DNA of 64,000 bases from an uncultured Porphyromonadaceae bacterium (GTDB lineage: Bacteria; Bacteroidota; Bacteroidia; Bacteroidales; UBA12481). The notes under the pieces were generated by a model, which ran no database searches, had not been told where the DNA came from, and was given only the letters and a program-made list of their open reading frames with translations. This document shows, one piece after another, positions 1 through 64,000 of the stretch. Every line of letters starts with the position of its first letter. The first letter of the stretch is position 1. The position numbers and the translations under genes are program-made. Where the stretch lies: the NCBI GenBank assembly GCA_964512915.1, contig CAZEKJ010000004.1:41347-105346 (forward strand), in the 5' to 3' direction.

Positions 1-1080
1 AAATAAATACAATTCCGGCTTGAATTTCTGCTCCGGTCCCTGACGGATCTCCAGTCGGGCCAGACTCCCCTTCATCACGGAAAAATGAGTGTCGCCGGCC
101 CCTTCAGGAGCCTGGTAGTTCCAGATGACCGAAACTTTTACATTAACCCCTTTAAGCTCATAATTAATTTCCCCGTTGCAGGCAACCTGCAGGATCGAAT
201 CGGCATCCACATAAGGAACCAGAAAAGCGGGATAGGCCCCGGAGCCGGTAACCTCGGTAAACTGTCGTGGTTGAATCGCGGTGTTCCATTTCCGGCTGCT
301 GGATATTCTGATATCTTTTTGATAATCAATGATTTGCTCAGGAAAACAGGCCCACTGGACAAGATCGACCAGATGGGTGGTTACATCCACGATGCCCTCC
401 CCTTCCTGCTTCACGTCGAAAAACCAGGCGGGCCTTACCAGTCGTGAGCCGGAAACATATTTGAAAAAATGGTGAACGCTCTCTTTGGTTACGGCGGGAT
501 CATCGGGTGAGCCTTTCAGAAGCTCCCCGAAAACCTCCGTAATGTGCGAGATTTCCTTCTGCAGGATCGAACTGATCTCAAAGCGCTCGGTCATGATATC
601 ATAAAGCAACAATCCTTTTTCTTCGGCGGTTTTGAATGCCTGTTGCAGGATGGCAAAATCTTCTGAATTGATTGCCATCGGCTTATCGGAAAAAATATTC
701 AGGCCGCTCTCAATGGCTCTCCCTATGTATTCCGTTTTTCGTTCATTATTTCCTGCGAGAACCAGTACATTTCCCGGTTTCTCCTTCAGCATCCGGTTAA
801 AAAAATCAGGGCCGGTTACGCTTTTCAGGTTCCATTTAGCCGGATCGGCCTCCCGGGTCCGGTACCCTTCCACCCGTTTTTTAAAATCAGAGAGTTCCGG
901 CCCATCCGGTGCATATACGTAAACACTTGAATCCACCCCGGGATACATCGATTTCAGCACCAGCGCCGCATGAAAATGGCCCGGCTCCGCAACCATTAAG
1001 GTTACGGTTTGATCCGGCTTTTTTCCTTCGCAAGAAATCATCAATAATGATATAGAAAACAGGTACAGTATTTTTTTCAT
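1..1080 (-). CDS. Lipoprotein, possibly related to Gfo/Idh/MocA-type oxidoreductases; 3' end cut by window edge
   Basis: Absent from the ORF track because there is no stop inside the window. Manual minus-strand translation from ATG at 1080-1078 stays open in frame to base 1: MKKILYLFSISLLMISCEGKKPDQTVTLMVAEPGHFHAALV... Lipobox LMISC. Family assignment rests on general resemblance only. Confidence 0.5.
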   Translation of the reverse strand, partial: MKKILYLFSISLLMISCEGKKPDQTVTLMVAEPGHFHAALVLKSMYPGVDSSVYVYAPDGPELSDFKKRVEGYRTREADPAKWNLKSVTGPDFFNRMLKEKPGNVLVLAGNNERKTEYIGRAIESGLNIFSDKPMAINSEDFAILQQAFKTAEEKGLLLYDIMTERFEISSILQKEISHITEVFGELLKGSPDDPAVTKESVHHFFKYVSGSRLVRPAWFFDVKQEGEGIVDVTTHLVDLVQWACFPEQIIDYQKDIRISSSRKWNTAIQPRQFTEVTGSGAYPAFLVPYVDADSILQVACNGEINYELKGVNVKVSVIWNYQAPEGAGDTHFSVMKGSLARLEIRQGPEQKFKPELYLF

Positions 1081-1112
1081 GAATGCCCGAATTAATACAA
1101 CCCAAAACGCCA

Positions 1113-1146
1113 GAACCACGGGTCTACGGGAGGACCACGGGTCTTC
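1113..1146. repeat. Direct repeat of a GACC-ACG-GGTC mini-hairpin motif
   Basis: gaaccacgggtct (1113-1125) and ggaccacgggtct (1132-1144). The same GGACC-NNN-GGTCC core recurs at 5814-5832 and 16744-16762. Confidence 0.8.
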
Positions 1147-1183
1147 CCCTACCACGCACCACACCCACACTCACACTCCCCCA

Positions 1184-1214
1184 TGCCCTTGTGCCCTTGT
1201 GCCCTTGTGCCCTA
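1184..1214. repeat. 8-mer tandem array (GCCCTTGT) x3.5
   Basis: tgcccttgtgcccttgtgcccttgtgccct runs into the stop codon (1212-1214) of the oxidoreductase gene. Confidence 0.9.
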
Positions 1215-2627
1215 TAGCCCCAGGCTATCCGTCCCCCACGGCTTCCTCTGTTCCCTCCTCAGCAGCGCATTTGCCGCGTCGCTGTTGGTAAACCTTTCGT
1301 GTACCGGATCCCACTGCAGTTTCTTCGGAATCTTCATGGCGATATGACTCAGCAGGCAGGCCGAGCAGGAGCGGTGGGCGACCTCAACCGGCGCGATGGG
1401 CTGCTGGCGGGTTCGCATGGAGTCGATCCAGTTGCCGTAATGATTTGTGCTTTTAACCAGATGCATTTCATCGGGTCCGATCACGCTGGTTAGTAACTTC
1501 GGATCGCGGGCATCCAGTGACTTTTTGTTGGCATCGAAAGTTACCGGGTCGCTTTTTGTAGCCTGATAATTGCCCCTTGTAACAAAGATCCAGCCCTCGC
1601 TCCCTTCGAACTTCACCCCGTTCGGGCGGTCGCCGCTGACGAACATGGTTACTCCGTTAGCGTATTTGGCCTTAACCTCAAAGTCACCGTGCACATTCCA
1701 CAGTCCGCTTTTGGGGAAACTTGCTTTTGCCTCGATCTCAACGGGGCCCGTATATTCGGTTCCCATTCCCCAGTGGGCTATATCCAGATGGTGAGCACCC
1801 CAGCCGGTGATCATCCCGGCGCCGAACTGCTCGCAGCGGAGCCAGCCGGGACGGCTGTAGTCGGCCTGCGGGTGCACACGTTTTTCGGTATAAAACACTT
1901 TCTCGGTCGACCCCAGCCACATATCATAATTCAGGTTTTTCGGCACAGGCATCTCCGGTTCAACCTCACCGCCCGGATCGCCCGGCAAGCCGATCTGGAT
2001 GGTGTGCAGCTTTCCGATCCGCCCGTTACGAACCAGTTCACAGGCATATCGGAACTGTTCCGATGAACGCTGCTGGCTGCCGATCTGGAAAATAACCCCG
2101 GACCGGTGAACCGCATCGCTCAACTGCCGGCCTTCGGCAATGGTTAAGGAGGTTGGTTTTTGCAGATAGATATCCTTTCCGGCAAGGGCCGCCTCAATGG
2201 CCGGCTGGGAATGCCAGTGATCGGGAGTACTGATGATCACGGCATCAATATCAGCCTTCATGATCATCTCCCGATAATCCTCGAATAGCTTTACGTCCAC
2301 CTCTTTACGTCCATATTTCTTCATATAGAACGCCTCTATGAACTGCTTTCCCTCGCCCACCCGTTTGGAGTCGAGGTCACAGGCCGCCACAAAGCGGACG
2401 GCATCAAACGGCAGGGCGCCTGGCATATCGGCCTCTCGGGCGATCCTGCCGCAGCCGATCTGGCCGATCCGGATCAGGTTGCTCGGGGCACTTTTACCAA
2501 AAACAGTTGATGGAACGATGGTCGGAATGATAATGGTTCCCGCGGCGGCCAGGCCACTAAGGCGCAAAAACTTCCGGCGATCAAGGCGTTGATGTTTCAT
2601 ATAGTAAGGGTTATAGTATGAACGCAT
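1212..2627 (-). CDS. Gfo/Idh/MocA family oxidoreductase with Tat signal
   Basis: 471-aa ORF. Twin-arginine motif DRRKFLRLSGLAAAG. Rossmann motif GQIGCGRIA and the typical Gfo/Idh/MocA C-terminal half. The start may instead be the ATG at 2600 (MKHQRLDRRKF). Confidence 0.85.
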   Translation of the reverse strand: MRSYYNPYYMKHQRLDRRKFLRLSGLAAAGTIIIPTIVPSTVFGKSAPSNLIRIGQIGCGRIAREADMPGALPFDAVRFVAACDLDSKRVGEGKQFIEAFYMKKYGRKEVDVKLFEDYREMIMKADIDAVIISTPDHWHSQPAIEAALAGKDIYLQKPTSLTIAEGRQLSDAVHRSGVIFQIGSQQRSSEQFRYACELVRNGRIGKLHTIQIGLPGDPGGEVEPEMPVPKNLNYDMWLGSTEKVFYTEKRVHPQADYSRPGWLRCEQFGAGMITGWGAHHLDIAHWGMGTEYTGPVEIEAKASFPKSGLWNVHGDFEVKAKYANGVTMFVSGDRPNGVKFEGSEGWIFVTRGNYQATKSDPVTFDANKKSLDARDPKLLTSVIGPDEMHLVKSTNHYGNWIDSMRTRQQPIAPVEVAHRSCSACLLSHIAMKIPKKLQWDPVHERFTNSDAANALLRREQRKPWGTDSLGL

Positions 2628-2670
2628 TTATGCGTTCCCACGAAGATACAAACTAAACCGAATCCACTAT

Positions 2671-2743
2671 GTCATCCCGACGAAAGTCGGGATCCCCAGC
2701 CTCGGAGCAAATGTCAGGAGATCCCGATTTCCATCGGGATGAC
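2671..2743. repeat. Twin tetraloop hairpins (GAAA-loop family), inverted pair
   Basis: H1 gtc-atcccgac-gaaa-gtcgggat (2671-2693). H2 atcccgat-ttcc-atcgggat-gac (2721-2743). Outer gtcat/atgac ends are complementary. The same architecture occurs at 35129-35184 and 62428-62499. Confidence 0.9.
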
Positions 2744-2755
2744 AACCCTCAGGCC

Positions 2756-2785
2756 TAACCAGTAACCAGCAACCAGCAACCAGTC
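2756..2785. repeat. RGYAACY heptamer array
   Basis: taacc agtaacc agcaacc agcaacc ag, ending at the stop codon of ORF 2786. Confidence 0.9.
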
Positions 2786-3478
2786 TCACTCCTGCCGCCA
2801 CTTCCGCCTCACATGTTTCACGGTCTGGGTGCCGGTAAAGACGGTGTACCCGAAGGTGCCTCCGCCGGCCCGGATCACCTCACGCACGAAGCGGGTGCAA
2901 TACATATGGGTAGGTGCGCCGTAAAAAAGGAATTGCTGATCCTCAACCTCGGTGGCCTTCGCTACCATCCGCTTTAGATCAAGATTGTATACAATGGCGG
3001 TATGGATGGCCCCGTAAGATCTGAAAAACTTCTTGGCTCCCAGGTGTACCAGGACAGTATCCAGGTTGGAGATCCATCCGTTTTCAAGCCGCGCCTTAAT
3101 TTTCAGTTTCAATTCCGGCACGTGCCGGGCCGACCGCACCGTTCCGTAAAACTCCGGCCGCGGGCCCATCTGGTCGCGGCGATCGTCATACCGGCCAAAG
3201 TCATAATAACTAAGGTCACCGGTGGTGCCGTCTACCAGGATCACACCGGTATGGCCAACATTCGCATAATTATCTTTGTTGAAGTCAAACACATGTGCCC
3301 AAAAATTCCAGAAACTCCGGTATTGCGGGATCAGGATAGGCTTTTCGGGAAAATTCACCACAATGGCCATATCGCGGTTATCACGGCGGCCGGGAGGTTC
3401 CCGTAACGGATTCTCAGCCGGCAGCAAGCCAGGCAGGCATAAAAAAACAAGCAGTATGGAAAGCCGCAAAAGTTTCAT
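2786..3478 (-). CDS. Secreted hypothetical protein
   Basis: ORF 2786-3493; I prefer the ATG at 3478 (MKLLRLSILLVFLCLPGLLPAENP signal peptide). No family recognised with confidence. Confidence 0.5.
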   Translation of the reverse strand: MKLLRLSILLVFLCLPGLLPAENPLREPPGRRDNRDMAIVVNFPEKPILIPQYRSFWNFWAHVFDFNKDNYANVGHTGVILVDGTTGDLSYYDFGRYDDRRDQMGPRPEFYGTVRSARHVPELKLKIKARLENGWISNLDTVLVHLGAKKFFRSYGAIHTAIVYNLDLKRMVAKATEVEDQQFLFYGAPTHMYCTRFVREVIRAGGGTFGYTVFTGTQTVKHVRRKWRQE

Positions 3479-3504
3479 AAAAATCTGCGGCAAATATAAT
3501 AAGG

Positions 3505-5720: not shown

Positions 5721-5752
5721 AGAGGGCAGAAGGCAGAAGGCAGAGGGCAAAA
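5721..5752. repeat. GGCAGRR heptamer array (solo arm)
   Basis: agagggcagaaggcagaaggcagagggcaaaaatcag is nearly identical to the left arm at 59378-59412. No complementary arm in this spacer. Confidence 0.85.
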
Positions 5753-5799: not shown

Positions 5800-5840
5800 A
5801 AGGCACGTGTAGCGGAGGACCCGTGGTCCTCCAGTGCCTT
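5800..5840 (-). terminator. GC-rich hairpin directly after the stop of the PKD/FISUMP gene
   Basis: aaggcac...ggaggacc-cgt-ggtcctcc...gtgcctt (inner stem 5814-5832, outer 5800-5806/5834-5840). A T-run follows on the minus strand only after about 25 nt, so terminator function is uncertain. Confidence 0.35.
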
Positions 5841-8133: not shown

Positions 8134-8180
8134 AATCATCGAATCAACGAATCATCAAATCATCAAATCAACGAATCAAC
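8134..8180. repeat. 8-mer tandem array (AATCAWCR) x6
   Basis: aatcatcg aatcaacg aatcatca aatcatca aatcaacg aatcaac. Covers the stop and last three codons of ORF 8168-9196. Confidence 0.9.
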
Positions 8181-9196
8181 TGCATCTCTCCTCCGTGAAC
8201 ATCCCTGAATCCCAGCTGTTGTGTTAATTCACTATGTGCCAATTCATTGACTGTTGTATTGGACAATTGAAGGTTATTTACGCTGGTTATCTGGATGGAG
8301 CTGAAAACCCCGGCCGCATTCACCAGATTGGTATACTGGTTGAGCGTATTGGAAATGGTGGTCTCCTGCAGGTCGGGAGAGACCAGCAAAGCCAGTTCCT
8401 CGCCGCCTTTGAAGAGACGATACTGCACATTGATCATATCCCTTACTACTGCCTGCTTAACCGGTACCTGCCTCACCATCTCCTCCAGAAAACGGTTCCC
8501 GCTGAACAGGTCGGTAATCTCTATTTCCTGTCCCAGTGACAGGATCGGACTCATCCGGATGACTACCTGATTCTGTGTGACTTCTCCTGATATTGAATCC
8601 TGATAATTAATGACGAATTCGCCCTGAAACACCCCATTCCCCTCACCGGGCGCCCATCGGGAGGTAAACTGGACACCGGTCTGAAGATTGATTTTCCTTC
8701 CCGGGATCTCCATCGGGTCATAAACCACCGGCCGCTGAGGCGGGATGGTTGTGCCCGTAACGATCCGGTCATCATCGGGAAAATGGACATACAGGCGGTA
8801 TTCCGTTCCCCTTTTCGGTATGAAACCGCATTTGAACAACCTGATATTGTCGGCCGGAAAGTATCCGGAATCCTTTGGCGGGGCCGCTGCCGGCTCAAAG
8901 CGAAAGATACGGGCCGGCATCCCGTTCGCCCACTCCTCCACATATACCACAACATCCAGGTTCCAGACGGTTGAGTCAGTAACCGGAGCTGCACCCGGAT
9001 CAGCCGGATCGGGCAGGTAGCTCCGCCCCAGCCTCACAAACTGTTCATCCACATCGGGATTCAGCAAACACCAGACCACCGGAACCGGATCGGATTCGAT
9101 ATTCAGATCGATCTCATTGGAGCAAGAGGAATGCAATAAGAGCAGGGAAACCGCCCCAAGGAAATAACCAACCGGATTTCTTAAAAATCGAAACAT
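8168..9196 (-). CDS. DUF4249-like lipoprotein
   Basis: ORF 8168-9238; ATG at 9196 gives MFRFLRNPVGYFLGAVSLLLLHSSC (lipobox). The N-terminal pattern (C..IDL......PVVWCLL.P....FVRL) resembles DUF4249. The last codons and the stop lie in an 8-mer array. Confidence 0.5.
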   Translation of the reverse strand: MFRFLRNPVGYFLGAVSLLLLHSSCSNEIDLNIESDPVPVVWCLLNPDVDEQFVRLGRSYLPDPADPGAAPVTDSTVWNLDVVVYVEEWANGMPARIFRFEPAAAPPKDSGYFPADNIRLFKCGFIPKRGTEYRLYVHFPDDDRIVTGTTIPPQRPVVYDPMEIPGRKINLQTGVQFTSRWAPGEGNGVFQGEFVINYQDSISGEVTQNQVVIRMSPILSLGQEIEITDLFSGNRFLEEMVRQVPVKQAVVRDMINVQYRLFKGGEELALLVSPDLQETTISNTLNQYTNLVNAAGVFSSIQITSVNNLQLSNTTVNELAHSELTQQLGFRDVHGGEMQLIR

Positions 9197-9259
9197 TCGA
9201 GTCGGATAAATAACCGAAAGTCTGTGGGGGCTGATCAAAGGTAGTGAATATTCTTATAT

Positions 9260-9540
9260 CCACCTCAACCCCGGTCCCCATAGCCGTCAACCTAAGGGAT
9301 TTCCATCTAGATAAACAAGGGCAAGAGGGCAAAAAGGCAGGAGTGCAAAAAGTAAAGGTTTAATAAGAAAAGACTTAAGTTGTAAGTGTGACCATCGGCA
9401 AGTGTGTGGTTTACTTTTTATTTTGCATGACTTAAAACTTTACTTCTTGTCTTTTTGCCCTCTTGCCCTTTTGCCCTAAGCCGGTTAGGCAGCCGAAATA
9501 TCCCTTAGGTTGACGGCTATGGGGTCGGGCGTTGAGGTGG
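9260..9540. repeat. 281-bp nested inverted-repeat element (outer 40-bp arms; inner GGGCAAR arms; AT-rich core)
   Basis: Outer arms 9260-9299 and 9501-9540 (ccacctcaac...catagccgtcaacctaaggga and its complement, about 4 mismatches). Inner arms 9315-9358 and 9438-9476 (gggcaagagggcaaaaag... / ctttttgccctcttgccc). The core contains agtaaagg and cttaag motifs shared with other copies. Confidence 0.9.
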
Positions 9541-9586
9541 ATCAGCACGAAAACAAGTACCTTCGCTACCCAAAAGACCAGCACGC

Positions 9587-11983
9587 ATGACCCGCTTATT
9601 CTGTATAAAAACCATGACCCGGATTTTCCTGTCGATTGCCCTCATAATAGCAGGACTTAGCACCTACGCCCAGTCCCCCTTCCGTGGCACCATTTCCGAA
9701 CCTTCCGCCCTGCTCGGCGGGATGCCGGCCGTGGCGCACTGGATCTGGCAGCCGGGCGAGGAGAATCCGAAGAACACCTACCTGCTGGTCCGGAAGTCGA
9801 TTGACTTTAAAAACAGGCCCGATAGTGTATTCGCCTATATATCTGCCTATTCCGTGGCTGATGTGTATGTCAACGGGGAGATGGTCGACCGCTGTCCGAT
9901 GAATTGCGACCCGGAATATCAGGTTTACGAGAAATTCAATTTAAGCCGCTATTTCCACGCCGGAACGAATACAATCACGGCCGTGGTGTACAATTTCGGA
10001 ATCGGGATGCACCACCGGATCAATGCCCGGGGCGGGTTCTTTTTCCAGGGCGAGGCTTTCCTGCCGGATAAAAAGACCAGCGGCATCAACACCGACGGCA
10101 GCTGGCGGGTTTCCGCCCTTAGCGGCTGGGCCACGGATACCGAATTGCGCACCGGGTCAGCAGAGGGTGCACCGAACCTCATCGGGTTTATTGAGCATTT
10201 CGATGCCCGCAAGATGCCACAAAACTGGCATTCGGCAATTTTCGATGACAGCGGATGGCAGGCGGCCAGCGTCATCGGTATTCCGCCCGTGGGTCCGTGG
10301 AAAAGTATCGTAACCGTAACCCGGCCGGTTCTCTTTCGCGAAACCATCTATCCGGTGAACCAGTGGACCGTGAACGGCTGGGTGATATATGACTTTGGCC
10401 GGGAGGTGACGGGAACGCCGGTGATCCGCCTGAAGGCCGGCAAGGAGGGCGCCGATATCACGCTGGGAACTGCCGAGCGCCTGCTGCCCGACGGCACCCC
10501 CGACTTTCAGCGGCGGGTTCGGTATGAGGACCATTACATCACCCGCAGCGGGGAGCAGCAGTGGAGCCCCTTCACCTGGCGCGGCTTCAGGTATCTCACG
10601 ATGCCGGTTAATTCCGATATTACCCTCATCGAACTCTCCGCCGTTGACCGCCATTTCAACCTGAGGGACGAAGGCGAGTTTGAATGCTCCGACCCCCTCC
10701 TCACCCGGATCTGGGAAACCGGCCGCTTCACGCTGAAATTATGCAGTCAGGATACCTACATGGACACCCCGTGGCGCGAGCAAACCCAGTACATCGCCGG
10801 GGATTCGCGCTACCTGCTGAAATATGCGTTCTATGCTTCCGGCCTCAGTTCGGAATTTTTAACCCGATATAATATCCTGTCGGGGGCCTGGTCGCAGCGC
10901 TGGGCCACCGACGGCTCCATCCGGTCGCGTTACCCCACCGACTGGCTCATCGGAGAGGGCACATCGGGATATCTGATTGATTATGAACTTGAATGGGTGA
11001 TTATGCTGGGCGAATACCTGGATTATTTCGGGAATTCCGATCTGATCCGACAGGTGTATCCCAACCTGGTTAAGCTGATGGCCCATTTCGAGACCCTCAT
11101 CGGGAAAGAACACGGGGTGCTTTCCGATATACCCGGCTGGATCGTGCTGGACCATCCGGATACCTACCCCATGGACCAGACGAAGGAGATAACGGGGTTG
11201 AATTGCCTGTACTACGCAGCGCTCAATACCGCGTCAAGACTGGCTGCGGAGGTCATGGCAGATCCGGTGCAGGGTGAAAAGTGGAAAAGTGAAAGAGTGA
11301 TACTCGGGGCCAATATCCGGAAATGGATGTGGTCGCCGGAGAAGAAAGTGTATGCCGACAGTTATGGCAGCAGCCAGTTCAGCCAGCAGACCCAGGTGTA
11401 TGCAATACTGTACGGGCTTGTCAATCAGGAAGATATTCCAGATGTAACCCGATATATCACGGAGCAGGGGCGAAAAAGCGAGATGTCGTTTGCCTATTAC
11501 GTGGTGGGGTCGGTTTTCGACCGCGAGCCGCAATGGGCGCTGGATTATATCCGCAAGAACTGGGGGGATCAGATGAAGCTCGCGTCGTTCAATGGCGGAT
11601 GGCAGGAGGGGTGGAATGTGGAAGAGTGGACGGGTGATATCGGTTCCACGTCGCATGCGTGGTGCTCGGGACCCACTGCACTGCTCCCGCAAAAGGTATT
11701 GGGGGTTGAGCCCATCAAGCCCGGCTGGAAAGAGTTCCGGGTTGCTCCGCATCCCGGCGACCTCACCTGGGCGCGGGGCGTGGTGCCCACACCTGCGGGC
11801 AGTATCATGATCAACTGGTCGCGGGACAATACTAAAATGAGTCTGTCGGTCGAGGTTCCCCGCGGCACCCGGGCATTGATCGATCTTCCCGCAGCGGCGA
11901 TCACCGTCGATGGCAAGTCCGTTAAGGGACCCGTTTGGGTGGCGGCGGGGGAGCATCAGGTGGAATGGATTTTGTTCCCGTAG
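9587..11983 (+). CDS. GH78-like (alpha-L-rhamnosidase-related) six-hairpin glycosidase
   Basis: 798-aa ORF. The signal peptide is best read from the second Met (9614, MTRIFLSIALIIAGLSTYAQ). Size and DTPWREQTQYIGD-type motif resemble the rhamnosidase catalytic-domain family. Its stop TAG is part of a conserved hairpin element. Confidence 0.6.
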   Translation: MTRLFCIKTMTRIFLSIALIIAGLSTYAQSPFRGTISEPSALLGGMPAVAHWIWQPGEENPKNTYLLVRKSIDFKNRPDSVFAYISAYSVADVYVNGEMVDRCPMNCDPEYQVYEKFNLSRYFHAGTNTITAVVYNFGIGMHHRINARGGFFFQGEAFLPDKKTSGINTDGSWRVSALSGWATDTELRTGSAEGAPNLIGFIEHFDARKMPQNWHSAIFDDSGWQAASVIGIPPVGPWKSIVTVTRPVLFRETIYPVNQWTVNGWVIYDFGREVTGTPVIRLKAGKEGADITLGTAERLLPDGTPDFQRRVRYEDHYITRSGEQQWSPFTWRGFRYLTMPVNSDITLIELSAVDRHFNLRDEGEFECSDPLLTRIWETGRFTLKLCSQDTYMDTPWREQTQYIAGDSRYLLKYAFYASGLSSEFLTRYNILSGAWSQRWATDGSIRSRYPTDWLIGEGTSGYLIDYELEWVIMLGEYLDYFGNSDLIRQVYPNLVKLMAHFETLIGKEHGVLSDIPGWIVLDHPDTYPMDQTKEITGLNCLYYAALNTASRLAAEVMADPVQGEKWKSERVILGANIRKWMWSPEKKVYADSYGSSQFSQQTQVYAILYGLVNQEDIPDVTRYITEQGRKSEMSFAYYVVGSVFDREPQWALDYIRKNWGDQMKLASFNGGWQEGWNVEEWTGDIGSTSHAWCSGPTALLPQKVLGVEPIKPGWKEFRVAPHPGDLTWARGVVPTPAGSIMINWSRDNTKMSLSVEVPRGTRALIDLPAAAITVDGKSVKGPVWVAAGEHQVEWILFP

Positions 11984-16737: not shown

Positions 16738-16743
16738 TTGTGT

Positions 16744-49200: not shown

Positions 49201-49256
49201 CCATTGCACGTTACGTTAAAATTCCGTAACATCAGGTTATAAAATCTTTCCAACCT

Positions 49257-53606: not shown

Positions 53607-53738
53607 CGACGCAAGCGTGCGCCCGCGTAACGCACCTGTAGGGGCGAACCCGCGGTTCACCCGGGATGGTTCGTGGGGAGTGACCAGTGACCAGTGACCA
53701 GTGACCAGTGACCAGTTCGTGATGCGTGACGCGTGAAG
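53602..53738. repeat. Composite spacer: CGTGA-like tract, GC hairpin, (GTGACCA)x5, CGTGAYG x3
   Basis: 53602-53635 cgtgacgacgcaagcgtgcgcccgcgtaacgcac. 53636-53666 ctgtaggggcgaacccgcggttcacccggg. 53680-53714 five perfect gtgacca. 53718-53738 cgtgatg cgtgacg cgtgaag. Confidence 0.95.
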
Positions 53739-54883: not shown

Positions 54884-54969
54884 CGTGAGGCGTGACGCGT
54901 GATGCGAAAAACCGGTAACTGGTAACCGGCAACCAGCAACCAGCAACCAGCAACTAGTAACCAGCAACC
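54884..54969. repeat. CGTGANS x3 followed by RGYAACY x8
   Basis: cgtgagg cgtgacg cgtgatg cg aaaaacc, then ggtaact ggtaacc ggcaacc agcaacc agcaacc agcaact agtaacc agcaacc. The last units encode AGY-stop of GH29 (54954). Confidence 0.95.
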
Positions 54970-56378
54970 TTCACCACCACTGCCTCCTGTTTCGCCAACT
55001 CCTCCCGCATCGCCTTTGGGATTACCACTAACAGTCCATCCGGCGTCATCTTGCTTTTCAGGGTTTTATTGCCAGCAACCAGGGTAGCGGTGAGTTTGCC
55101 TTTTAATTGGGTTTTGATGATCAGGTTCTCGGGCAATGCCACCTCATCGTTATCGGGCATATAAATGGCGTAAATCGTTTTGTCACCTTTTGCCGTGTAG
55201 GCGATCTTGCCTTGCTGGAAGGGCTCCACCGGGGTGGTTCCATAGATGGCTTCTCCATTGACCGACAGCCATTTGCCCATGCCTTCCAGACGCTGATACA
55301 CGGCCGGCTCAAATTCGCCGGTGCCTTTGGGACCCACACCCAGCAGAAGGTTGCCGCCTTTGGCCACGATCTTCACCAGCAGCTGAACCAGTTCCTTTAC
55401 GGATTTATAATTATCACCGGGCACCCAGCCCCAGGCGCCGCCCATCGTGATGCAGCTTTCCCACGGCACGGCGAGGGCTTTCTCGGGGGTCTTCTGTTCG
55501 GGAGTCAGGTAATCCTCATATTCGCTCTTCACCCAGCGGTCGACCACCAGCATTCCGGGATTCGCCTTACGGGCGCGGGCCGCGATGGTTTTCATGTCGA
55601 TATCCATATCGTGCGGATACTTGCAGAATTCGGCAACCTTGGGCGTGATGGAGGATTTCGGCATCACCCAGCAGCCATCGAGCCAGAGAATATCCACTTT
55701 CCCGTACTCGGTTGTGATCTCATTAATCTGATTCTGTGTGTATTCCACGAACTTCTTCCATCGCTCCGGATGCTGGGTGATGTCGTAGGTGGGATTCCGG
55801 TCCTTCGGCGGATAATAGGGCCACCAGAAATAGGGGGTGGTCCAGTCGGGCTTCGAGAAATAGGCGCCCACGGCCATCCCCTCGGCACGACAGGCATTCA
55901 TGATCTCCTTGTATACGTTAGATTTCGGATTGGTCGAGAATGGGGTTCCCTTGTCGGTCACCTTAAAATCGGTGTATTTGGTATCATACAGACAGAACCC
56001 GTCATGATGTTTCGTGCTGTAAATCATATACTTTGCCCCCGATCCCTTGAATGCTTTCGCCCATTTCTGCGGATCGAACTGAACCGGATTGAATTTCGAT
56101 TTGTTATTCCGATAATCGGTTGCGTACTTATAGTAGTCGTCATACCCGGGCCGGGTGATCCAGTCCTCCGGGCAAAGTCCCCAGGATTCAATCACGCCAT
56201 CCACCGAGTACAAGCCCATGTGAATGAGCAATCCAAACTTGTACCCCTGCCAGGTATTCAGATTTTCGAGCACCTTCGGATCCTTGGGCCAGACGTAGGT
56301 ATCGGGCTCAGATTGGGCGGAGAGGTTGAAAGAAGCCAGGATCAGAAAAAGGCTGAGTAGGGTTGCTAAGCGTTTCAT
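54954..56378 (-). CDS. GH29 alpha-L-fucosidase
   Basis: 474 aa. Signal peptide and the YKFGLLIHMGLYS...STKHHDGFCLYDT blocks. The last three codons and the stop lie in a heptamer array. Confidence 0.85.
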   Translation of the reverse strand: MKRLATLLSLFLILASFNLSAQSEPDTYVWPKDPKVLENLNTWQGYKFGLLIHMGLYSVDGVIESWGLCPEDWITRPGYDDYYKYATDYRNNKSKFNPVQFDPQKWAKAFKGSGAKYMIYSTKHHDGFCLYDTKYTDFKVTDKGTPFSTNPKSNVYKEIMNACRAEGMAVGAYFSKPDWTTPYFWWPYYPPKDRNPTYDITQHPERWKKFVEYTQNQINEITTEYGKVDILWLDGCWVMPKSSITPKVAEFCKYPHDMDIDMKTIAARARKANPGMLVVDRWVKSEYEDYLTPEQKTPEKALAVPWESCITMGGAWGWVPGDNYKSVKELVQLLVKIVAKGGNLLLGVGPKGTGEFEPAVYQRLEGMGKWLSVNGEAIYGTTPVEPFQQGKIAYTAKGDKTIYAIYMPDNDEVALPENLIIKTQLKGKLTATLVAGNKTLKSKMTPDGLLVVIPKAMREELAKQEAVVVKVAGY

Positions 56379-56414: not shown

Positions 56415-56453
56415 GTTGCTGGTTGCCAGTTGCCGGTTGCCGGTTGCCGGTTT
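56415..56453. repeat. GGTTGCC heptamer array (reverse orientation of the RGYAACY family)
   Basis: gttgct ggttgcc agttgcc ggttgcc ggttgcc ggttt. Inverted relative to 54914-54969 across the GH29 gene. Confidence 0.95.
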
Positions 56454-59377: not shown

Positions 59378-59531
59378 AAGGCAGAAGGCAGAGGGCAGAA
59401 GGCAAAAATTAGGACGAAGAAAAATGAAAAAAGAAGGAAACTGCTTCTAATCCAACTTGTTACTTAACTTGATTCTTAAGGATTAAGGACTTAAGACTAA
59501 TTTTTGCCTTCTGCCCTCTGCCCTCTGCCTT
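59378..59531. repeat. Hairpin element (GGCAGAR arms, 35-bp inverted repeat with 1 mismatch), copy A
   Basis: Left arm 59378-59412 aaggcagaaggcagagggcagaaggcaaaaattag. Right arm 59497-59531 is its complement apart from one base. 84-nt core. Confidence 0.95.
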
Positions 59532-59568: not shown

Positions 59569-60696
59569 ATGACCCGCCACGAACGACTTCTTCGATCCCT
59601 CCGCGGCCTCCCGGTCGATCGCCCACCCGTCTGTTTCTACGAAATAAACGGCTACGACGAGCATCCGGAAGATCCTGATCCGTTCAATATTTTCTCCCAT
59701 CCCTCCTGGAAACCTCTAATCTACCTGGCCCGGGAGAAAACCGACCGGATCATCATGCGGGGCGTGGCTTTCAAGGAGATCGCCCCCGACCCGATCGGCC
59801 ACATTGCCGCCGATCAAACCACCCTAAAAAACGGCTCCCGGTACATCCGGCGAACCGTTCATGCGGGCAGGCGCATCCTGACCATGGAGACCCGTCAGGA
59901 TCCGGATATCAACACCATCTGGACCACCGAGCCGCTGCTCAAGGATCTGGATGATCTGGATGCGTTCCTTGAACTCCCCGTTTTCGGTGCCGGTGAAACC
60001 GTGAATGCCATTGAATTCCTTAAAGTTGAAGCCGATATCGGAGATACAGGTTTGGTCATGATCGACACGCCCGATCCGCTTTGCCTGGCTGCACTCCTCT
60101 TCGACATGAGCAATTACACCATGGTTGCCCTCACCGAACCCGAGCGCTTTCATAAATTACTGCAACGGTTCTCCGAGGTTCTCCTTGCCAAAACGGAGGA
60201 AGTTGCAAAACTCCTCCCCGGCCGCCTCTGGCGCATTTACGGTCCGGAGTTCGCCTCCCCGCCCTACCTGCCGCCTTATCTGTTCCGTGAATATGTATCC
60301 CGATATGTTGGCCCGATGATCGACCTGATCCACCAATCGGGCGGGTTTGCCCGGGTTCACTGTCATGGCAACATCCGCGACATCCTCGATGATATTGCAG
60401 CCATGGGTGCCGATGCCATTGACCCGATCGAGCCCCCGCCCCAGGGCGATGTAACGCTAAAATATGTAAGGGAACGCTACGGCGACCGCCTTGTCCTCTT
60501 CGGCAACCTCGAATGTGCCGATCTCGAAAACCTCCCGACTTCCGAATTTGAAAAGAAAATCCGCCAGGCCCTCGACGAAGGCACCGCCGGCTCCGGCCGC
60601 GGCTTCGTACTTATGCCCTCTGCTTCGCCATATGGGAGGGTGCTGGGGGAGCGTGCAATGAGGAACTATGAGGCGATGATCCGGGTAATACAATAA
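59569..60696 (+). CDS. Uroporphyrinogen decarboxylase (URO-D) family protein, MtaA/CmuA-like
   Basis: 375 aa. N-terminal MTRHERLLRSLRGLPVDRPPV and a C-terminal HCHGN...DPIEP pattern typical of the URO-D superfamily. Flanked by two inverted copies of one repeat element. Confidence 0.65.
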   Translation: MTRHERLLRSLRGLPVDRPPVCFYEINGYDEHPEDPDPFNIFSHPSWKPLIYLAREKTDRIIMRGVAFKEIAPDPIGHIAADQTTLKNGSRYIRRTVHAGRRILTMETRQDPDINTIWTTEPLLKDLDDLDAFLELPVFGAGETVNAIEFLKVEADIGDTGLVMIDTPDPLCLAALLFDMSNYTMVALTEPERFHKLLQRFSEVLLAKTEEVAKLLPGRLWRIYGPEFASPPYLPPYLFREYVSRYVGPMIDLIHQSGGFARVHCHGNIRDILDDIAAMGADAIDPIEPPPQGDVTLKYVRERYGDRLVLFGNLECADLENLPTSEFEKKIRQALDEGTAGSGRGFVLMPSASPYGRVLGERAMRNYEAMIRVIQ

Positions 60697-60841
60697 GGCA
60701 GAGGGTAGAAGGCAGAAGGCAGAAATTAGTCTTAAGTCCTTAATCCTTAAGAATCAAGTTAAGTAACAAGTTGGACTAGAAGCAGTTTATTTCTTTTCAC
60801 CTATTTCTTCTTACTAATTTCTGCCTTCTGCCCTCTGCCTT
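60695..60841. repeat. Hairpin element (GGCAGAR arms), copy B, inverted relative to copy A
   Basis: Arms 60695-60729 and 60814-60841. The 84-nt core (60730-60813) is the reverse complement of the copy A core (first 45 nt identical, about 85 percent overall by eye). Confidence 0.95.
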
Positions 60842-60886: not shown

Positions 60887-62386
60887 ATGAAACTGCCCGT
60901 CTCCGTCAATAACCGGCTTTCCATCACCGGCGCCATCGTGGCCAGCATCAGTCTGATGTTCATCATCTTCTTTTTTATCATCAGCCTGTTCTATACCGAA
61001 GGCGGTAACTACCTGGGCCTATTCACCTACATTATCCTTCCGGTATTCCTGATTCTCGGCCTGATCCTGATACCCATCGGGATGGTTGGGAAAATGAAGC
61101 GGATGAAACGAGGTATTGAAGAGGTAAAAGGTAAGCCCTGGATCATAGATTTTACCGATAAACGGCACCGGAATGCCACATTTGTTTTTGCCATGGGTAC
61201 GGTAGTTCTTCTCTTTCTATCGGGGATTGGAAGCTATGAGGCCTTTCATTACAGCGAATCCGTTCAGTTCTGCGGTACAACCTGCCACAAGGTTATGGAG
61301 CCGGAACACACTGCCTATCAGGGATCTGAACACGCCAACGTTGCCTGCGTAGAATGCCATGTTGGCGCCGGCGCCGACTGGTATATCAGATCGAAACTTT
61401 CCGGACTCCGACAGGTTTGGGCGGTTATCACCAATAGTTACCCTCGCCCGATACCTACCCCGATAGTGGATCTGCGGCCTGCGCGGGAAACCTGTGAACA
61501 CTGCCACTGGCCGGCGAAGTTCTATGCGCACAAACTGGTATCAGAGAAACACTATCTGGCCGATTCTGCCAATACCGAGTGGAATATAGACCTTCGGATG
61601 AAAATCGCCGCCTCACACAGCGCCCTGGGAAATACCGGCGGAATCCACTGGCATATCAATCCTGATATTAAAATCGAATACATTGATGCCCTGGGCGACC
61701 GTGAGATGCTTCCGTGGGTCCGTAGTATTAACCTGATCACCGGCGATACCACGATATACATGGATTCCGAGAACCCGGCCAGCGACTCAATCATGCATGC
61801 TGTTGAACCCCGTACCATGGACTGCATGGATTGCCACACACGCCCGTCGCACAAATACCGGACTCCACAAACATTTGTAGATGAAGCGATTGCAGCAGGC
61901 GAGATATCCGTTACCCTGCCGGAAATTAAAAAAATCAGCATGGAAGTCCTGCGCACAGAGTACTTCAACCGCCAGGGCGCCCAGGACACCATCCGCCAAA
62001 CCATCGATGCATTCTACAAGGATACCTATCCCGATATTTATGCCAACCGCAAATCCGACGTGGATCAGGCTATTGCAGGAGTTTTAGCTGGATATGCCAA
62101 AAACATATTCCCCGAAATGAAAGCCAGCTGGGATGCGTACCCTGATCACATCGGACATATTGAATACGGCGGCTGTTTCCGGTGCCACAACGATAAACAT
62201 CAGAGTAAATCGGGTAAAGTAATCTCACGAGACTGCAACCTCTGCCACAACATCATGACTCAGGGGACTCCGCAAAACCTGGAAGTGGCTCCGTTTAATG
62301 GTCAACTGGAATTCAAACACCCCGTTGACATTGAGGATGCATGGAAGGAGATGGCTTGTACGGAGTGCCACAGAAAGCTGTACTAG
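60887..62386 (+). CDS. Membrane-anchored multiheme cytochrome c (NapC/NirT-like N-terminus, seven heme sites)
   Basis: 499 aa with N-terminal TM segments. Six CxxCH sites (CVECH, CEHCH, CMDCH, CFRCH, CNLCH, CTECH) plus one CGTTCH (CX3CH) at the position of the NapC-type FCxxCH. Confidence 0.75.
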   Translation: MKLPVSVNNRLSITGAIVASISLMFIIFFFIISLFYTEGGNYLGLFTYIILPVFLILGLILIPIGMVGKMKRMKRGIEEVKGKPWIIDFTDKRHRNATFVFAMGTVVLLFLSGIGSYEAFHYSESVQFCGTTCHKVMEPEHTAYQGSEHANVACVECHVGAGADWYIRSKLSGLRQVWAVITNSYPRPIPTPIVDLRPARETCEHCHWPAKFYAHKLVSEKHYLADSANTEWNIDLRMKIAASHSALGNTGGIHWHINPDIKIEYIDALGDREMLPWVRSINLITGDTTIYMDSENPASDSIMHAVEPRTMDCMDCHTRPSHKYRTPQTFVDEAIAAGEISVTLPEIKKISMEVLRTEYFNRQGAQDTIRQTIDAFYKDTYPDIYANRKSDVDQAIAGVLAGYAKNIFPEMKASWDAYPDHIGHIEYGGCFRCHNDKHQSKSGKVISRDCNLCHNIMTQGTPQNLEVAPFNGQLEFKHPVDIEDAWKEMACTECHRKLY

Positions 62387-62427
62387 TTGCCAGTTGCCGG
62401 TTACCGGTTACCGGTTGGGCCAGAGCG
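62384..62427. repeat. GGTTRCC heptamer array ending in ccggttgggccaga
   Basis: tagttgccagttgccggttaccggttaccggttgggccagagc. Same terminal motif as 44957-44978. Its first tag is the cytochrome stop codon. Confidence 0.9.
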
Positions 62428-62499
62428 GTCATCCTGACGGAAGTCAGGATCCCCTTGCGGTGCATTGAGGGTTGGGATTCCTGCTTTCGCCGGAATGAC
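62428..62499. repeat. Twin tetraloop hairpins (GGAA / TTTC loops)
   Basis: gtc-atcctgac-ggaa-gtcaggat (62428-62450) and attcctgc-tttc-gccggaat-gac (62477-62499, one mismatch). Confidence 0.85.
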
Positions 62500-62512
62500 A
62501 TTAGTTGCTCCG

Positions 62513-62544
62513 ACTGGTCACTGGTTACTGGTCACTGGTCACTC
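62513..62544. repeat. ACTGGTC heptamer array (reverse of GTGACCA family)
   Basis: actggtc actggtt actggtc actggtc actc. Runs into the stop of the GRE activase gene. Confidence 0.9.
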
Positions 62545-63451
62545 ATCCTCCAACGCTCACCGGCAACCCATACTCTGTAAATACTCTAATAGCCATCTCT
62601 ATTTCCCCCCTCGTGGGTTCTGCCAGTCCGGCCTGGTCGTATTGCTGTCCCAGCTTGTTGTGCTTATTTATGGCGATATTATGGTAAGCCAGGAGGTTGA
62701 CCTGTTTTGGAGGACCATCCAGTGCGGCAATGAATGATGCGGTTTGCCTGAGGTTCTCAGGGTCACTGTTCACTCCGCTGATCAATGGAATCCTGATGTT
62801 GATCTCTGCCCCCGATTCAGCCAGTATCTGAAGATTTGAAAGGATTTTTTCATTGCCCACCCCAGTGAACCTCTTGTGCTTTTCGGAATCCATGTGCTTC
62901 AGGTCGTAAAGGAATAGGTCGGTCCGCTTTGCGACCTCCAGAAGAGTTTCTGTTTTTGCAAAGCCCGATGTATCCACCGCCCTGTGAATCCCCTCGCTGC
63001 CGCAGGCATCCAGCAGTTCAATCAGAAAATCAGGCTGTTGCAGCGGTTCACCACCCGATATGGTGATCCCGCCTGCAGACTGGTCCATCATCACGGTTTC
63101 GCGCCTCACCACCTTCATCACTTCCTCCACGGTAGCCGGATAACCCGACATTTCCATGGCCTTCGTTGGACATACATCGGCACAAATCCCACAAAGATCG
63201 CAGGCATCCACATCGGTAAAAATTCCATCCGGAGTGAGCTTCAGGGCATGCTGCGGACAATTCTCCACGCAGGTGCTGCAGCCGATACATTTCGCCTTCG
63301 AATACATTTTCTGCACATGCGGGGAAATGCTCTCCGGATTATGGCACCACAGGCAATTCAACGGGCAGCCCTTGAGGAAAACCGTAATCCTTATACCCGG
63401 ACCATCGTTGATCGAATAGGGTTTAATATCGAAGAGCAGTGCCTGAGCCAT
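62543..63451 (-). CDS. Glycyl-radical enzyme activating protein (radical SAM)
   Basis: 302 aa. GPGIRITVFLKGCPLNCLWCHNPE and two ferredoxin-type clusters (CIGCSTCVENCP, CDLCGICADVCP). Confidence 0.85.
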   Translation of the reverse strand: MAQALLFDIKPYSINDGPGIRITVFLKGCPLNCLWCHNPESISPHVQKMYSKAKCIGCSTCVENCPQHALKLTPDGIFTDVDACDLCGICADVCPTKAMEMSGYPATVEEVMKVVRRETVMMDQSAGGITISGGEPLQQPDFLIELLDACGSEGIHRAVDTSGFAKTETLLEVAKRTDLFLYDLKHMDSEKHKRFTGVGNEKILSNLQILAESGAEINIRIPLISGVNSDPENLRQTASFIAALDGPPKQVNLLAYHNIAINKHNKLGQQYDQAGLAEPTRGEIEMAIRVFTEYGLPVSVGG

Positions 63452-63541
63452 TTTATACTTTGAAGTATGAAGTTAGAATTGAGAGATTCGAATGCAGAAT
63501 TCCGAATTCCGAAATATCAGATTCAAGTACCTCCTTCTTCA

Positions 63542-63575
63542 ATTAGCACATTAGCACATTAGCATATTAGCACAT
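63542..63575. repeat. 8-mer tandem array (ATTAGCAC) x4
   Basis: attagcac attagcac attagcat attagcac attta. Abuts the GRE stop codon (63576-63578). Confidence 0.95.
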
Positions 63576-64000
63576 TTACAGAATTTCATTCTGCGTACGT
63601 TCGATAACCTCGATCTGAAGATCATCGTTCATGTCGTTGAAATAGTCGCTGTAGCCGGCCATCCGAACGAGGAGATCCTTATACTCATCGGGAGTCTGGC
63701 GGGCGGCCATGAGGGTGGCGGTGTCAACGATGTTGAACTGAACATGGTGCCCGCCGAGGGTGAAATAACTGCGGATCAGCTGACCCAGTTTTGCAATATC
63801 CTGATCGCGTTTCAGCAGGCTCGGCAGGAATCGCAGGTTCAGCAGGGTTCCGCCAGATTTGGTCTGGTCGAGCTTCGAAAGCGACCGTATTACAGCGGTG
63901 GGGCCATGGGTGTCGCAACCGTGCGACGGTGAGGTGCCGTCGGAGATCGATTTTCCGGCCAGCCTGCCGTTCGGCATGGCACCCAGCACCTTGCCGAAAT
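63576..64000 (-). CDS. Glycyl radical enzyme (PFL/glycerol dehydratase family), C-terminal part; 5' end beyond window
   Basis: Glycine-radical motif LLVRMAGYSDYF near the C-terminus. The frame stays open to the right window edge, and the Met at 63989 is internal. Confidence 0.85.
   Translation of the reverse strand, partial: FGKVLGAMPNGRLAGKSISDGTSPSHGCDTHGPTAVIRSLSKLDQTKSGGTLLNLRFLPSLLKRDQDIAKLGQLIRSYFTLGGHHVQFNIVDTATLMAARQTPDEYKDLLVRMAGYSDYFNDMNDDLQIEVIERTQNEIL

Follow-up and report, generated by a model that had tools for sequence, protein, structure and literature searches.

Dense heptanucleotide tandem arrays in the intergenic spacers of a 64-kb stretch of an uncultured Bacteroidales genome

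What fills the spaces between the genes in a 64,000-nucleotide stretch (hereafter the window) of contig CAZEKJ010000004.1 (positions 41,347 to 105,346; assembly GCA_964512915.1) from an uncultured Porphyromonadaceae bacterium? A preliminary description, made from the letters of the DNA alone, had reported tandem arrays of 7- or 8-nt units in almost every intergenic spacer and had taken them for an undescribed repeat system. The observation of dense spacer arrays is confirmed here, together with their imperfection, their enrichment in spacers, their small shared set of units and their very high density. The arrays belong to the class of heptanucleotide simple repeats. Since intergenic heptanucleotide arrays, inverted pairs included, are already published from cyanobacteria, Xanthomonas, Beggiatoaceae and some Bacteroidetes, the claim of an undescribed system fails; the class is catalogued, whereas the unit families themselves are new, because no published unit sequence was found in tandem in the window. 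We read the arrays, with a probability of roughly 0.55, as dispensable heptanucleotide minisatellites that grow by slippage, are homogenised in concert and spread in mosaics resembling repetitive extragenic palindromic (REP) sequences and MITEs (miniature inverted-repeat transposable elements).

Overlapping calls of Tandem Repeats Finder (TRF) were merged, and a repeat counted as an array if its period was 7 or 8 and its copy number 2.7 or more. The window holds 42 merged arrays of 2.7-13 copies each, compared to a mean of 0.37 and a maximum of 2 in first-order Markov resamples of the window, which upholds the proposed enrichment over composition. Spacers make up 7.5% of the window, yet they hold or border 38 of the 42 arrays: 29 lie in spacers, 9 at the edge of an open reading frame (ORF; mostly over-extended ORF calls) and 4 within genes. 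A quarter of the spacer bases (1297 of 5155, 25%) fall inside arrays. Perfect runs of at least three copies were observed eight times at period 7, once at period 8 and never at periods 5, 6, 9, 10 or 11. Two over-extended ORF calls were replaced by the true starts 36623 (with the twin-arginine translocation signal MTDRRKFLK) and 56507. After this correction the window has 32 spacers of more than 50 bp, and 29 of them carry an array, a hairpin or a module repeat, in close agreement with the 30 of 34 counted originally. The local density of approximately 0.66 arrays per kb is, by our own arithmetic and as a purely local value, more than 10-fold above the single-family densities published for Xanthomonas and 'Maribeggiatoa'.

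TRF recovered every set of arrays that had been listed by eye. Arrays of RGYAACY units were called at 2756, 24260, 36712, 44937/45036, 54910, 56415 and 62386; those of CGTGANS units at 12024, 16711, 36659, 53718, 54884 and 40623-40696; those of GTGACCA at 53679 (5.4 copies, 100% match) and 62513; GGTTTGR and GATTGAC arrays at 27810 and 41895, respectively; and 8-mer arrays at 1184, 8134, 17072 and 63542. The GGCAGRR group was found at 5721, 9318, 19292, 46927, 49030, 59378 and 60695, with one adjustment: the position 49003 given for it is an outer inverted repeat, and the array proper begins at 49030. The families are fewer than listed, as a single (GTGA+NNN) continuum takes in both the CGTGANS and the GTGACCA units. 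A second, purine-rich group, in variants of 7 and 8 nt, comprises GGCAGRR, GGGCAAR and GGCGAAA; GGTTRCY makes up a third, and several AT-richer 8-mers complete the set; at least 10 unrelated unit sequences occur within this one window. The same order of families, in which a stop codon is followed by (GGTTRCY)n and next by (NTCACGN)n, was indeed found at both 36659-36756 and 54884-54969. Some arrays contain higher-order periods of 14 or 21 nt (TRF). About two-thirds of the arrays have no inverted partner, and such solo arrays, when folded, showed no more structure than shuffles (z +0.85 and +1.6). A fixed orientation of families relative to genes was considered and rejected as inconsistent. The lack of structure in solo arrays and the variable orientation argue against one RNA-level function.

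With respect to genes, the arrays keep close to stop codons. Fourteen of them begin in the interval from 16 nt upstream of the last stop-codon base to 8 nt downstream of it, and at two sites (41905 and 54954) the array itself provides the stop. Distances from array to start codon are spread over 5-304 nt, leaving room for a promoter and a 5' untranslated region; in 12 of 15 co-directional spacers tabulated by hand, the stop is the closer of the two codons to the array (p = 0.035). Thus, the idea that arrays abut or overlap both kinds of codon holds for stops but rarely for true starts, where the apparent overlaps are mostly ORF over-calls. A sigma-70 promoter scan was uninformative for Bacteroidota. 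Hairpin-plus-T-run sites resembling terminators were found at shuffle level (24, 26, and 21 versus 23.5, 22.1, and 22.1 expected) and almost never after stop codons at the gene 3' ends of the window. Separately, (GTTCACG)n was observed directly upstream of 'ATTTTTTT(C)GTAYCTTTG', a T-run followed by a TAnnTTTG -7 box, at 16700-16737 in the window and also at 9854-9880 and 11810-11861 of L062, a Bacteroidales lineage at 71% TypA identity, so that the same family and the same adjacency occur in distant lineages.

Loci syntenic with the TypA region of the window were found in uncultured Bacteroidales metagenome-assembled genomes (numbered with the prefix L). L001, 'Bacteroidetes bacterium GWF2_49_14', shares 99% amino-acid identity in TypA and approximately 88-90% nucleotide identity; the TypA of L002 is 98% identical to that of the window at the amino-acid level, those of L003-L012 and L014 are 89-93% identical, and those of L013 and L015 80-81%. 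The window carries 6.6 period-7/8 arrays per 10 kb and L001-L015 carry 0-7, more than zero in 13 of 15; other Bacteroidales loci mostly carry approximately 0-1, with exceptions that include L056, L062, L063, and L075. Across 14 relatives, orthologous spacers retain period-7 arrays with altered units. In the spacer upstream of TypA, the leader of the neighbouring CorA gene and the TypA promoter (TAYCTTTG) are conserved, and the stretch between them is hypervariable. Period-7 arrays occupy it in 11 of 12 clade genomes with differing units: CGGTTGC in the window and L001, CTGGTTG in L002, GTAGGCA / GTTGGCA in L003 and L004, GAAACCG in L006, GGGCAGA in L007, GGGTATC in L008 and L009, GGATATC / GGATGCY in L010, and GGATTCG in L012. 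Neighbouring lineages are separated by 1-2 nt per unit (CGGTTGC/CTGGTTG; GGGTATC/GGATATC/GGATTCG), and the near-identical genomes L003 and L004 differ in copy number (4.6 versus 2.1). An inverted partner, where present, carries the matching variant, CTGGTT going with AACCAG in L002 and CCGGTT with AACCGG in the window.

Turnover is also seen in the convergent spacer downstream of TypA, where the window has (GGGCAGG)n / (CCTGCCC)n and L002 has (AAGGCGC)n / (GCGCCTT)n. The 131-bp palindrome of the window (46904-47034) corresponds to a spacer of only 14 bp in L001 and to overlapping genes in L010, and L005, L007, L009, and L014 have classical bidirectional A-run/hairpin/T-run terminators at this place. 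Another palindrome (49011-49198) is absent in L002, which has an empty site with a possible CATTG duplication, and L001 shares just its outer inverted repeat, around a different core. These empty or shortened sites in L001, L010, and L002 point to arrays that are dispensable. Different sites have unit families in common, and this resemblance declines to the random level as relatives become more distant: unit pairs with at most 1 mismatch make up 11.1% between different window spacers, 10.7% between the window and L001/L002, 7.1% against L003-L015, and 2.6% against distant Bacteroidales, compared to 2.2% for random heptamers of the same composition. The flanks of TypA were also considered as array hot spots; in distant Bacteroidales, arrays occur at 3 of 65 upstream and 6 of 65 downstream flanks, which was judged to be about the level of any spacer.

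The preliminary description had overlooked inverted pairing, by which many arrays form long palindromes. Seven spacers contain an array and its reverse complement 27-115 nt away (9318/9445, 19292/19430, 44937/45036, 46907/47003, 49030/49147, 59378/59505, and 60695/60819). These palindromes measure 130-285 bp with arms of 27-60 nt, in accordance with the size, the non-coding nature and the inverted-repeat structure of MITEs and foldback elements. Four of the seven were folded and gave free energies (dG) of -56 to -89 kcal/mol with z of -7 to -11, the stems reaching beyond the arrays. A URO-D-like gene (59569-60696) is flanked by two inverted copies of a 147-nt element, an arrangement that resembles a composite transposon or a substrate for local inversion. 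The inner 25-mer of this element had 0 matches in a scan of the metagenome collection.

Arrays also enter coding sequence. On the minus strand, the array arm 19292-19322 lies inside a GH92 gene and supplies the hydrophobic core (MNSLKSFVLSLSFAFRLFPFAFLLTSC) of its lipoprotein signal peptide; the start codon of this gene lies in the loop of a hairpin with a 60-bp stem (19292-19356 region). In the hypervariable loop of a glycosyltransferase, heptamers directly follow the same W-K-K codons in all three genomes, the window, L001, and L010, and all begin with GAC, with the units GACGCGT / GACACGA in the window, GACGGAC / GACAGAA in L001, and GACCGAA / GACCAAA in L010; the loop array of L010 is direct, whereas those of the window and L001 are palindromes.

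The GTCATCC hairpins that had been pooled with the arrays match the published definition of CGTC-tagged REPs (PMC3733652), which are reported from Bacteroidetes among other phyla in the same source. They have the features of family 1, namely a C/TGTC tag, an 8-bp stem starting with AT, a 4-nt loop, and head-to-head dimers; the hairpin, TGTC-ATCCCGAC-GAAA-GTCGGGAT, forms three inverted pairs in the window with the tags outside. Its exact 23-mer (GTCATCCCGACGAAAGTCGGGAT; GNRA loop, usually a head-to-head dimer) was found on upwards of 120 metagenome contigs whose GC content ranges from 26 to 71%, and its stem variants show compensatory changes. The identical hairpin in very different genomes suggests horizontal spread or strong constraint. 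An array lies within 200 nt of 10 of the 138 metagenome CGTC hairpins (loci L081-L200), indicating that the hairpin is not the carrier of the arrays. Six other hairpins, tagged GTAG or GTAA (5809, 11980, 24709, 30018, 30050 on the minus strand, and 53638), are GC-rich, follow genes and, judged by tag and position, look like GTAG-tagged REPs, the second REP superfamily (PMC3733652).

Arrays and REPs combine into composites. An array joined through a GGCCAGA junction to a CGTC-REP dimer was found at 2670-2784 and 62386-62543, and the same composite recurs in the TypA-upstream spacer of L001 and L002 and in metagenome contig L147. The TypA-upstream palindrome of the window has the arms and the junction without the REP dimer, which fits the insertion of REP dimers into pre-existing palindromes; REP dimers nested in longer palindromes have been described (PMC3733652). 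Four palindromic blocks of another kind consist of modules of an 8-nt linker and a short GC segment, often a UUCG-type mini-hairpin. Relatives carry such blocks as well, in orthologous spacers of L001, L002, L008, L009, L010, and L014. The linker is TAAWAGG at all four window loci and mostly TAATTGG or TAAATGG at the orthologous loci of L001 and L002, which points to a genome-wide concerted change of a dispersed module repeat. The features are collected in the table.

Table. Arrays, palindromes, hairpins and module blocks of the window (numbers after x are copies; genes on the minus strand are marked (-); z and dG, the latter in kcal/mol, are from folding)
Position	Strand	Feature	Context
1184-1213		solo array (TGCCCTTG)x3.8	adjoins stop of gene 1212-2627(-)
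2670-2744		CGTC-tagged REP head-to-head dimer (TGTCATCCCGACGAAAGTCGGGAT ... inverted copy)	
2756-2784		solo array (TAACCAG)x4.1	begins 1 nt past stop of gene 2786-3493(-); adjoins REP dimer (composite)
5721-5749		solo array (AGAAGGC)x4.1, GGCAGAR family	
5809-5832	+	GTAG-tagged REP-like hairpin GTAGCGGAGGACCCGTGGTCCTCC	
8134-8180		solo 8-mer array (AATCAWCG)x5.9	overlaps stop of gene 8168-9238(-)
9258-9542		nested palindrome; outer inverted repeat 9258-9300 / 9500-9542; inner arrays (GGGCAAR)n 9318-9352, (YTTGCCC)n 9445-9477	divergent spacer
11980-12002	+	GTAG-tagged REP-like hairpin	tag includes stop TAG of gene 9587-11983
12024-12053		solo array (CGTGAYG)x4.3, then A-run	
16711-16762		solo array (CGTGAYS)x3.7; REP-like hairpin 16742-16762	beside promoter box TACCTTTG of gene 15720-16643(-)
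17072-17119		solo 8-mer array (ATTGGCAM)x5.4	adjoins stop of gene 17116-19356(-)
19292-19461		array palindrome (AAGGCGA)n / (TCGCCTT)n	arm 19401-19460 adjoins stop of gene 19460-20434(-); second arm, 19292-19351, within coding sequence 17116-19356(-)
24260-24318		solo array (TAACCGG / CAACCRG)n	fills spacer, stop 24251 to start 24322
24709-24731	+	GTAG-tagged REP-like hairpin	followed by 11-mer (AGTTAAGGTAT)x2.7 at 24758-24787
27808-27918		solo array (GGTTTGR)x13, 14/21-nt higher-order periods	fills intra-operon spacer, cytochrome oxidase genes
30018-30072		dimer of GTAG-tagged REP-like hairpins	convergent spacer
31094-31267		palindromic block of 17-21-nt modules (TAAWAGG linker + GC mini-hairpins)	
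33213-33404		palindromic module block, same family as 31094-31267	
34090-34152		short (CGTRANG)n run + 9-mer (TCTCTTAAC)x3.2	
35128-35185		CGTC-tagged REP head-to-head dimer	
36659-36752		two adjoining solo arrays (CGTGAAS)x6.9, (AACYGGT)x5.9	4 nt past stop of gene 36757-38199(-); z +0.85
40623-40696	+	in-frame palindromic array (CGTGAYR)n / (YRTCACG)n	hypervariable loop of glycosyltransferase 39904-41079
41080-41277		palindromic module block	arms 41092-41142 / 41177-41227, 98% complementary
41895-41926		solo array (GATTGAC)x4.6	provides stop codon of RNase HII 41278-41907
43641-43826		palindromic module block	convergent spacer; 48-nt arms 100% complementary
44927-45073		array palindrome (CGGTTGC)x4.9 / (AACCGGC)x3.4	CorA leader to TypA promoter; dG -81.9, z -9.9
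46907-47036		array palindrome (GGGCAGR)n / (YCTGCCC)n	fills convergent spacer stop-to-stop; dG -88.7, z -11.1
49011-49198		array palindrome; 59-nt arms, 95% complementary; unit-variant order mirrored exactly	divergent spacer
53638-53738		hairpin 53638-53662 (GTAG-tagged), then perfect (AGTGACC)x5.4, (CGTGAYG)x2.7	unstructured, z +1.6
54884-54969		(CGTGASG)x3.3 + (AACCRGY)x8	stop of gene 54954-56378(-) falls within array
56415-56452		solo array (GTTGCCR)x5.4	divergent spacer, 54 nt upstream of true start 56507
59378-59531	+	palindromic element of ~150 nt, (GGCAGAR)n arms	dG -71.6, z -10.6
60695-60841	-	second copy of ~150-nt element, 147 nt, 91% identical	begins at stop of gene 59569-60696
62386-62543		composite: (GTTRCCG)x4.6 at one stop, GGGCCAGA junction, CGTC-REP dimer 62427-62500, (ACTGGTY)x4.4 at other stop	convergent spacer
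63489-63576		(CGAATTC)x3.6 + 8-mer (ATTAGCAC)x4.4	adjoin stop of gene 63576-63989(-)

The genes of the window include a type IX secretion system (T9SS) sorting domain, SusC/RagA, GH92, GH125, and a fucosidase, a typical Bacteroidota content. The CorA leader (44760-44880, minus strand; gene 43827-44759) runs for approximately 105 nt from the promoter box TACTTTTG to the ATG and is nearly invariant in 10 relatives, the adjoining DNA being hypervariable. Within it are a hairpin, two pairs of which are compensatory, and a CCUCC...GGAGG layout resembling an anti-Shine-Dalgarno/Shine-Dalgarno pair. The leader had no match in Rfam even at E<=1 and is a candidate cis-regulatory element, possibly Mg2+-responsive. 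For the window as a whole, the search against Rfam covariance models that had been proposed for the repeats was run and returned 0 matches at gathering thresholds, and ARAGORN gave no match. An imperfect inverted repeat with 104-nt arms (78% complementary) and a 43-nt loop occupies 16772-17022 of a 472-bp spacer and has smaller palindromes (CCACTAGCTTTAGCTAGTGG) inside it. The 24-nt tandem/inverted repeat at 42086-42142 was set apart from the array phenomenon, as it codes for three DLTGF(E/Q)NL peptide repeats; it lies inside the lipoprotein gene 41973-43640 and has related 13-mers at 51636 and 51747, and AGACCTGWCAGGT-like 13-mers are over-represented in the window (13 versus 1.7 expected).

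How could such arrays arise and persist? In the reading we prefer, they would be a lineage-specific library of heptanucleotide, sometimes octanucleotide, minisatellites in mosaic with REP hairpins. This reading builds on direct observations, namely the period specificity, the spacer enrichment, the turnover and empty sites, the mirrored arms, the shared unit library, and the stop abutment. In-register replication slippage or unequal exchange would add and remove units, so that the 7-nt period is kept and higher-order periods of 14 and 21 nt arise; the periods of this kind in the window fit such a process. Unit variants would be homogenised within an array and between its arms, by template switching or gene conversion in the palindrome, and the unit sequence would drift with period and site persisting. 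Families would move between spacers as parts of palindromic non-coding composites, through foldback/MITE-like transposition or recombination between copies, with REP dimers inserting into the composite centres. Arrays would occupy DNA free of constraint, that is, the interval between a stop codon and the core promoter that follows, variable loops of proteins, and the cores of signal peptides, and would be individually dispensable. Any benefit, for instance from paired arrays acting as 3' hairpins, would be secondary. Several points weigh against this reading. Slippage is deduced solely from differences between species, and this reading, like the literature, does not account for the preference for 7 nt. 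One element pair alone shares inner sequence, the composites at 4-5 sites have in common just the junction and the REP dimer, and the target-site duplications are ambiguous. No transposase, REP-associated tyrosine transposases (RAYTs) included, was found among the 20 window proteins scanned. The persistent occupancy of spacers across the clade, the abutment to stops, and the lack of canonical terminators could reflect selection for function. Finally, for the most divergent units (GGGCAGG versus AAGGCGC), hot-spot insertions are not fully separable from concerted evolution in place.

In a rival reading, paired arrays would be selected structures, either long RNA hairpins that end or stabilise transcripts directly after the stop codon or DNA cruciforms that insulate transcription units; palindromes would then replace intrinsic terminators in this lineage, and their heptamer make-up would be incidental. 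The strong folding of the four pairs, the complementarity kept despite different units in relatives, and the arms that start at stop codons are consistent with such a role, as are the canonical hairpin-plus-T-run sites, which occur at shuffle frequency and not at gene ends, and the classical terminators that L005, L007, L009, and L014 have in place of the TypA-downstream palindrome. However, three of the seven palindromes lie in divergent spacers (9239-9586, 44760-45121, and 48952-49256), where no transcript ends, and the stems have no following U-tract. The partnerless, unstructured two-thirds of the arrays and the absence of the element from sister genomes (14 bp left in L001, overlap in L010, empty in L002) also disagree with it, and we consider a selected structure possible but unlikely. 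A bolder proposal is that an active process with an intrinsic 7-nt register, perhaps a footprint of slippage by the replisome or in repair, perhaps a recombinase or nuclease dedicated to it, regenerates and homogenises arrays in nearly every spacer and in tolerant coding loops, and that mirrored arrays replace terminators or insulators genome-wide. This is speculative and rather improbable; if true, heptamer arrays would be a functional and mechanistically tractable feature instead of neutral filler.

Alternatively, the arrays might be purely the terminal inverted repeats or bodies of foldback/MITE transposons, and turnover would then be serial insertion at hot spots. The two 91%-identical copies of the 147-nt element, the possible CATTG duplication at the empty site of L002, the composites recurring at unrelated loci, the families common to several spacers, and the REP dimers already known to nest in palindromes (PMC3733652) could be explained in this way. 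But most arrays share the unit alone and neither flanking nor inner sequence, near-identical genomes differ in copy number and in single unit variants in place, and related units begin at the same nucleotide in orthologous sites, the codon-constrained loop included. Together with the negative scans of 20 window proteins for a transposase and of the metagenome collection for the inner 25-mer, this makes pure transposition a doubtful explanation with little prospect. Less credible still is a regulatory network in which the arrays would be binding sites for S1, Csp, CsrA-type, or nucleoid proteins, as proposed for the TAACTGA repeats (PMC4679880). CspB binding one heptamer per protein, as cited in that paper, and the (GTTCACG)n next to the T-run and TAnnTTTG box in the window (16711) and L062 would agree with it, whereas the 10 or more unrelated units of the window, the freedom of the unit to change at a fixed site, the variable orientation, the position at stops, opposite to that of TAACTGA, and the dispensability in sisters would not. 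G-quadruplex (G4) elements like the GGGNATC of Xanthomonas and Nostoc are very improbable: the GGGCAGR arrays at 46928, 47008, 49031, and 49152 and the array at 1194 match G3N1-7 x4, but just these 5 of 42 qualify, the 7 G4 motifs in total are within the null (mean 3.8, maximum 11), and GGTTRCY, GTGANNN, and AT-rich 8-mers are unable to form G4. On these counts, G4 formation was rejected as a general explanation. Stutter in assembly or polishing, for which nothing speaks beyond the general difficulty of assembling repeats, has next to no chance: the arrays are imperfect, stay in frame where coding, and occur at orthologous spacers in more than 10 relatives, and because these relatives were assembled independently, an artefact is excluded; the preliminary description had already taken the imperfect units as an argument against stutter.

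Among bacterial long simple repeats, heptanucleotide arrays show the strongest over-representation, and this clade provides an unusually dense natural experiment on them. Its syntenic relatives at graded distances make the birth, homogenisation, and dispersal of arrays, and their possible co-option as 3' hairpins, directly testable. In practice, such arrays also interrupt assemblies made from short reads, mislead the calling of ORFs (in the window, several starts and stops were called wrongly), and can add residues to proteins.

The published systems resemble these arrays in different respects. As cited in PMC4679880 and PMC4692102, Mrazek (2007) found heptanucleotides to be the dominant long simple repeats of prokaryotes and over-represented intergenically. 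The arrays share with this class of long simple sequence repeats (LSSRs) the head-to-tail units of 5-11 nt with heptamers dominant, the strongly intergenic location, the patchy phylogeny, and slippage as the proposed origin; tandem units of at least three copies, excess over composition, period-7 dominance, and intergenic bias were all observed in the window. They differ from it in the coexistence of many families and in a far higher local density (0.66 arrays per kb, with 25% of the spacer bases covered), and the uncultured Bacteroidales lineage of the window is not among the hosts of the LSSR surveys. The short tandemly repeated repetitive (STRR) sequences of heterocystous cyanobacteria are likewise intergenic and tandem, with several heptamer families per genome. 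Mazel et al. reportedly described the STRR units CCCCAGT, TTGGTCA, and CAACAGT in 1990. These units form 0 tandem dimers in the window, the CTGGTCA of which is 1 nt from TTGGTCA, and their host belongs to another phylum. An identification as STRRs was considered and rejected, given that the proteins and nearest relatives are Bacteroidales and the STRR units are never in tandem. In Calothrix (PCC 7601), three heptanucleotide repeats are mentioned as cited in PMC4692102.

Xanthomonas has approximately 186 intergenic GGGAATC arrays per genome, including 70-75 convergent inverted pairs, conserved in position and variable in length between species (Rehm et al., 2015; PMC4692102). Intergenic heptamer arrays and convergent inverted pairs, of which the window has seven as palindromes, are thus common to Xanthomonas GGGAATC, Nostoc GGGGAYT, and the window. 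Those genomes, however, have one G-rich, G4-competent family, whereas the window has many families that are mostly not G4-competent, and in its clade the unit sequence itself turns over at orthologous sites, unlike the Xanthomonas/Nostoc description; GGGNATC and GGGGAYT form 0 tandem dimers in the window. 'Maribeggiatoa' has 169 TAACTGA sets (PMC4679880), and TAACTGA arrays occur in Beggiatoaceae, Cyanobacteria, and five Bacteroidetes (MacGregor, 2015; PMC4679880). These are also intergenic heptamer arrays, and the TAACTGG of the window is 1 nt from their unit, but TAACTGA sets lie just upstream of starts in fixed orientation, whereas the window arrays lie at stops without fixed orientation, and no TAACTGA tandems occur in the window. 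In Bacteroidetes spacers, the same source describes 'larger assemblages of heptamer repeats' that close relatives lack. Simple sequence repeats of phase variation, in which the number of units switches particular surface or virulence genes, were ruled out, because 29 of 32 spacers bear repeats regardless of gene function and the arrays are mostly downstream of stops.

More distant parallels concern evolution and architecture. Eukaryotic satellite DNA has a 'library' of units and undergoes concerted evolution. A shared unit library, homogenisation within arrays, and turnover of sequence with period and location retained are found here as well, although the window arrays measure tens of bases and not kilobases and lie between the genes of a bacterial chromosome. 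Eukaryotic Foldback elements have arms or bodies built of tandem repeats. Together with MITEs, they share with the window non-coding palindromes, inverted arms of short tandem sub-repeats, and presence/absence polymorphism, but most window arrays are solo; a Porphyromonas gingivalis MITE is described as containing a minisatellite (PMC4596501). GTAG/CGTC REPs and their dimers, known as bacterial interspersed mosaic elements (BIMEs) or REPINs (PMC3733652; PMC3116915), are similar in their tags, head-to-head dimers, and position after genes, in nesting in longer palindromes, and in occasional in-frame insertion, as in Rickettsia palindromic elements (RPE). REPs are single hairpins and not tandem arrays, however, and the two kinds of repeat simply occur side by side as distinct components. 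Five aspects are additional to the published descriptions considered here: the density, the number of co-resident families, the turnover of units with period and site retained, the concerted change of both arms, and the presence of in-frame arrays in a protein loop and in a signal peptide.

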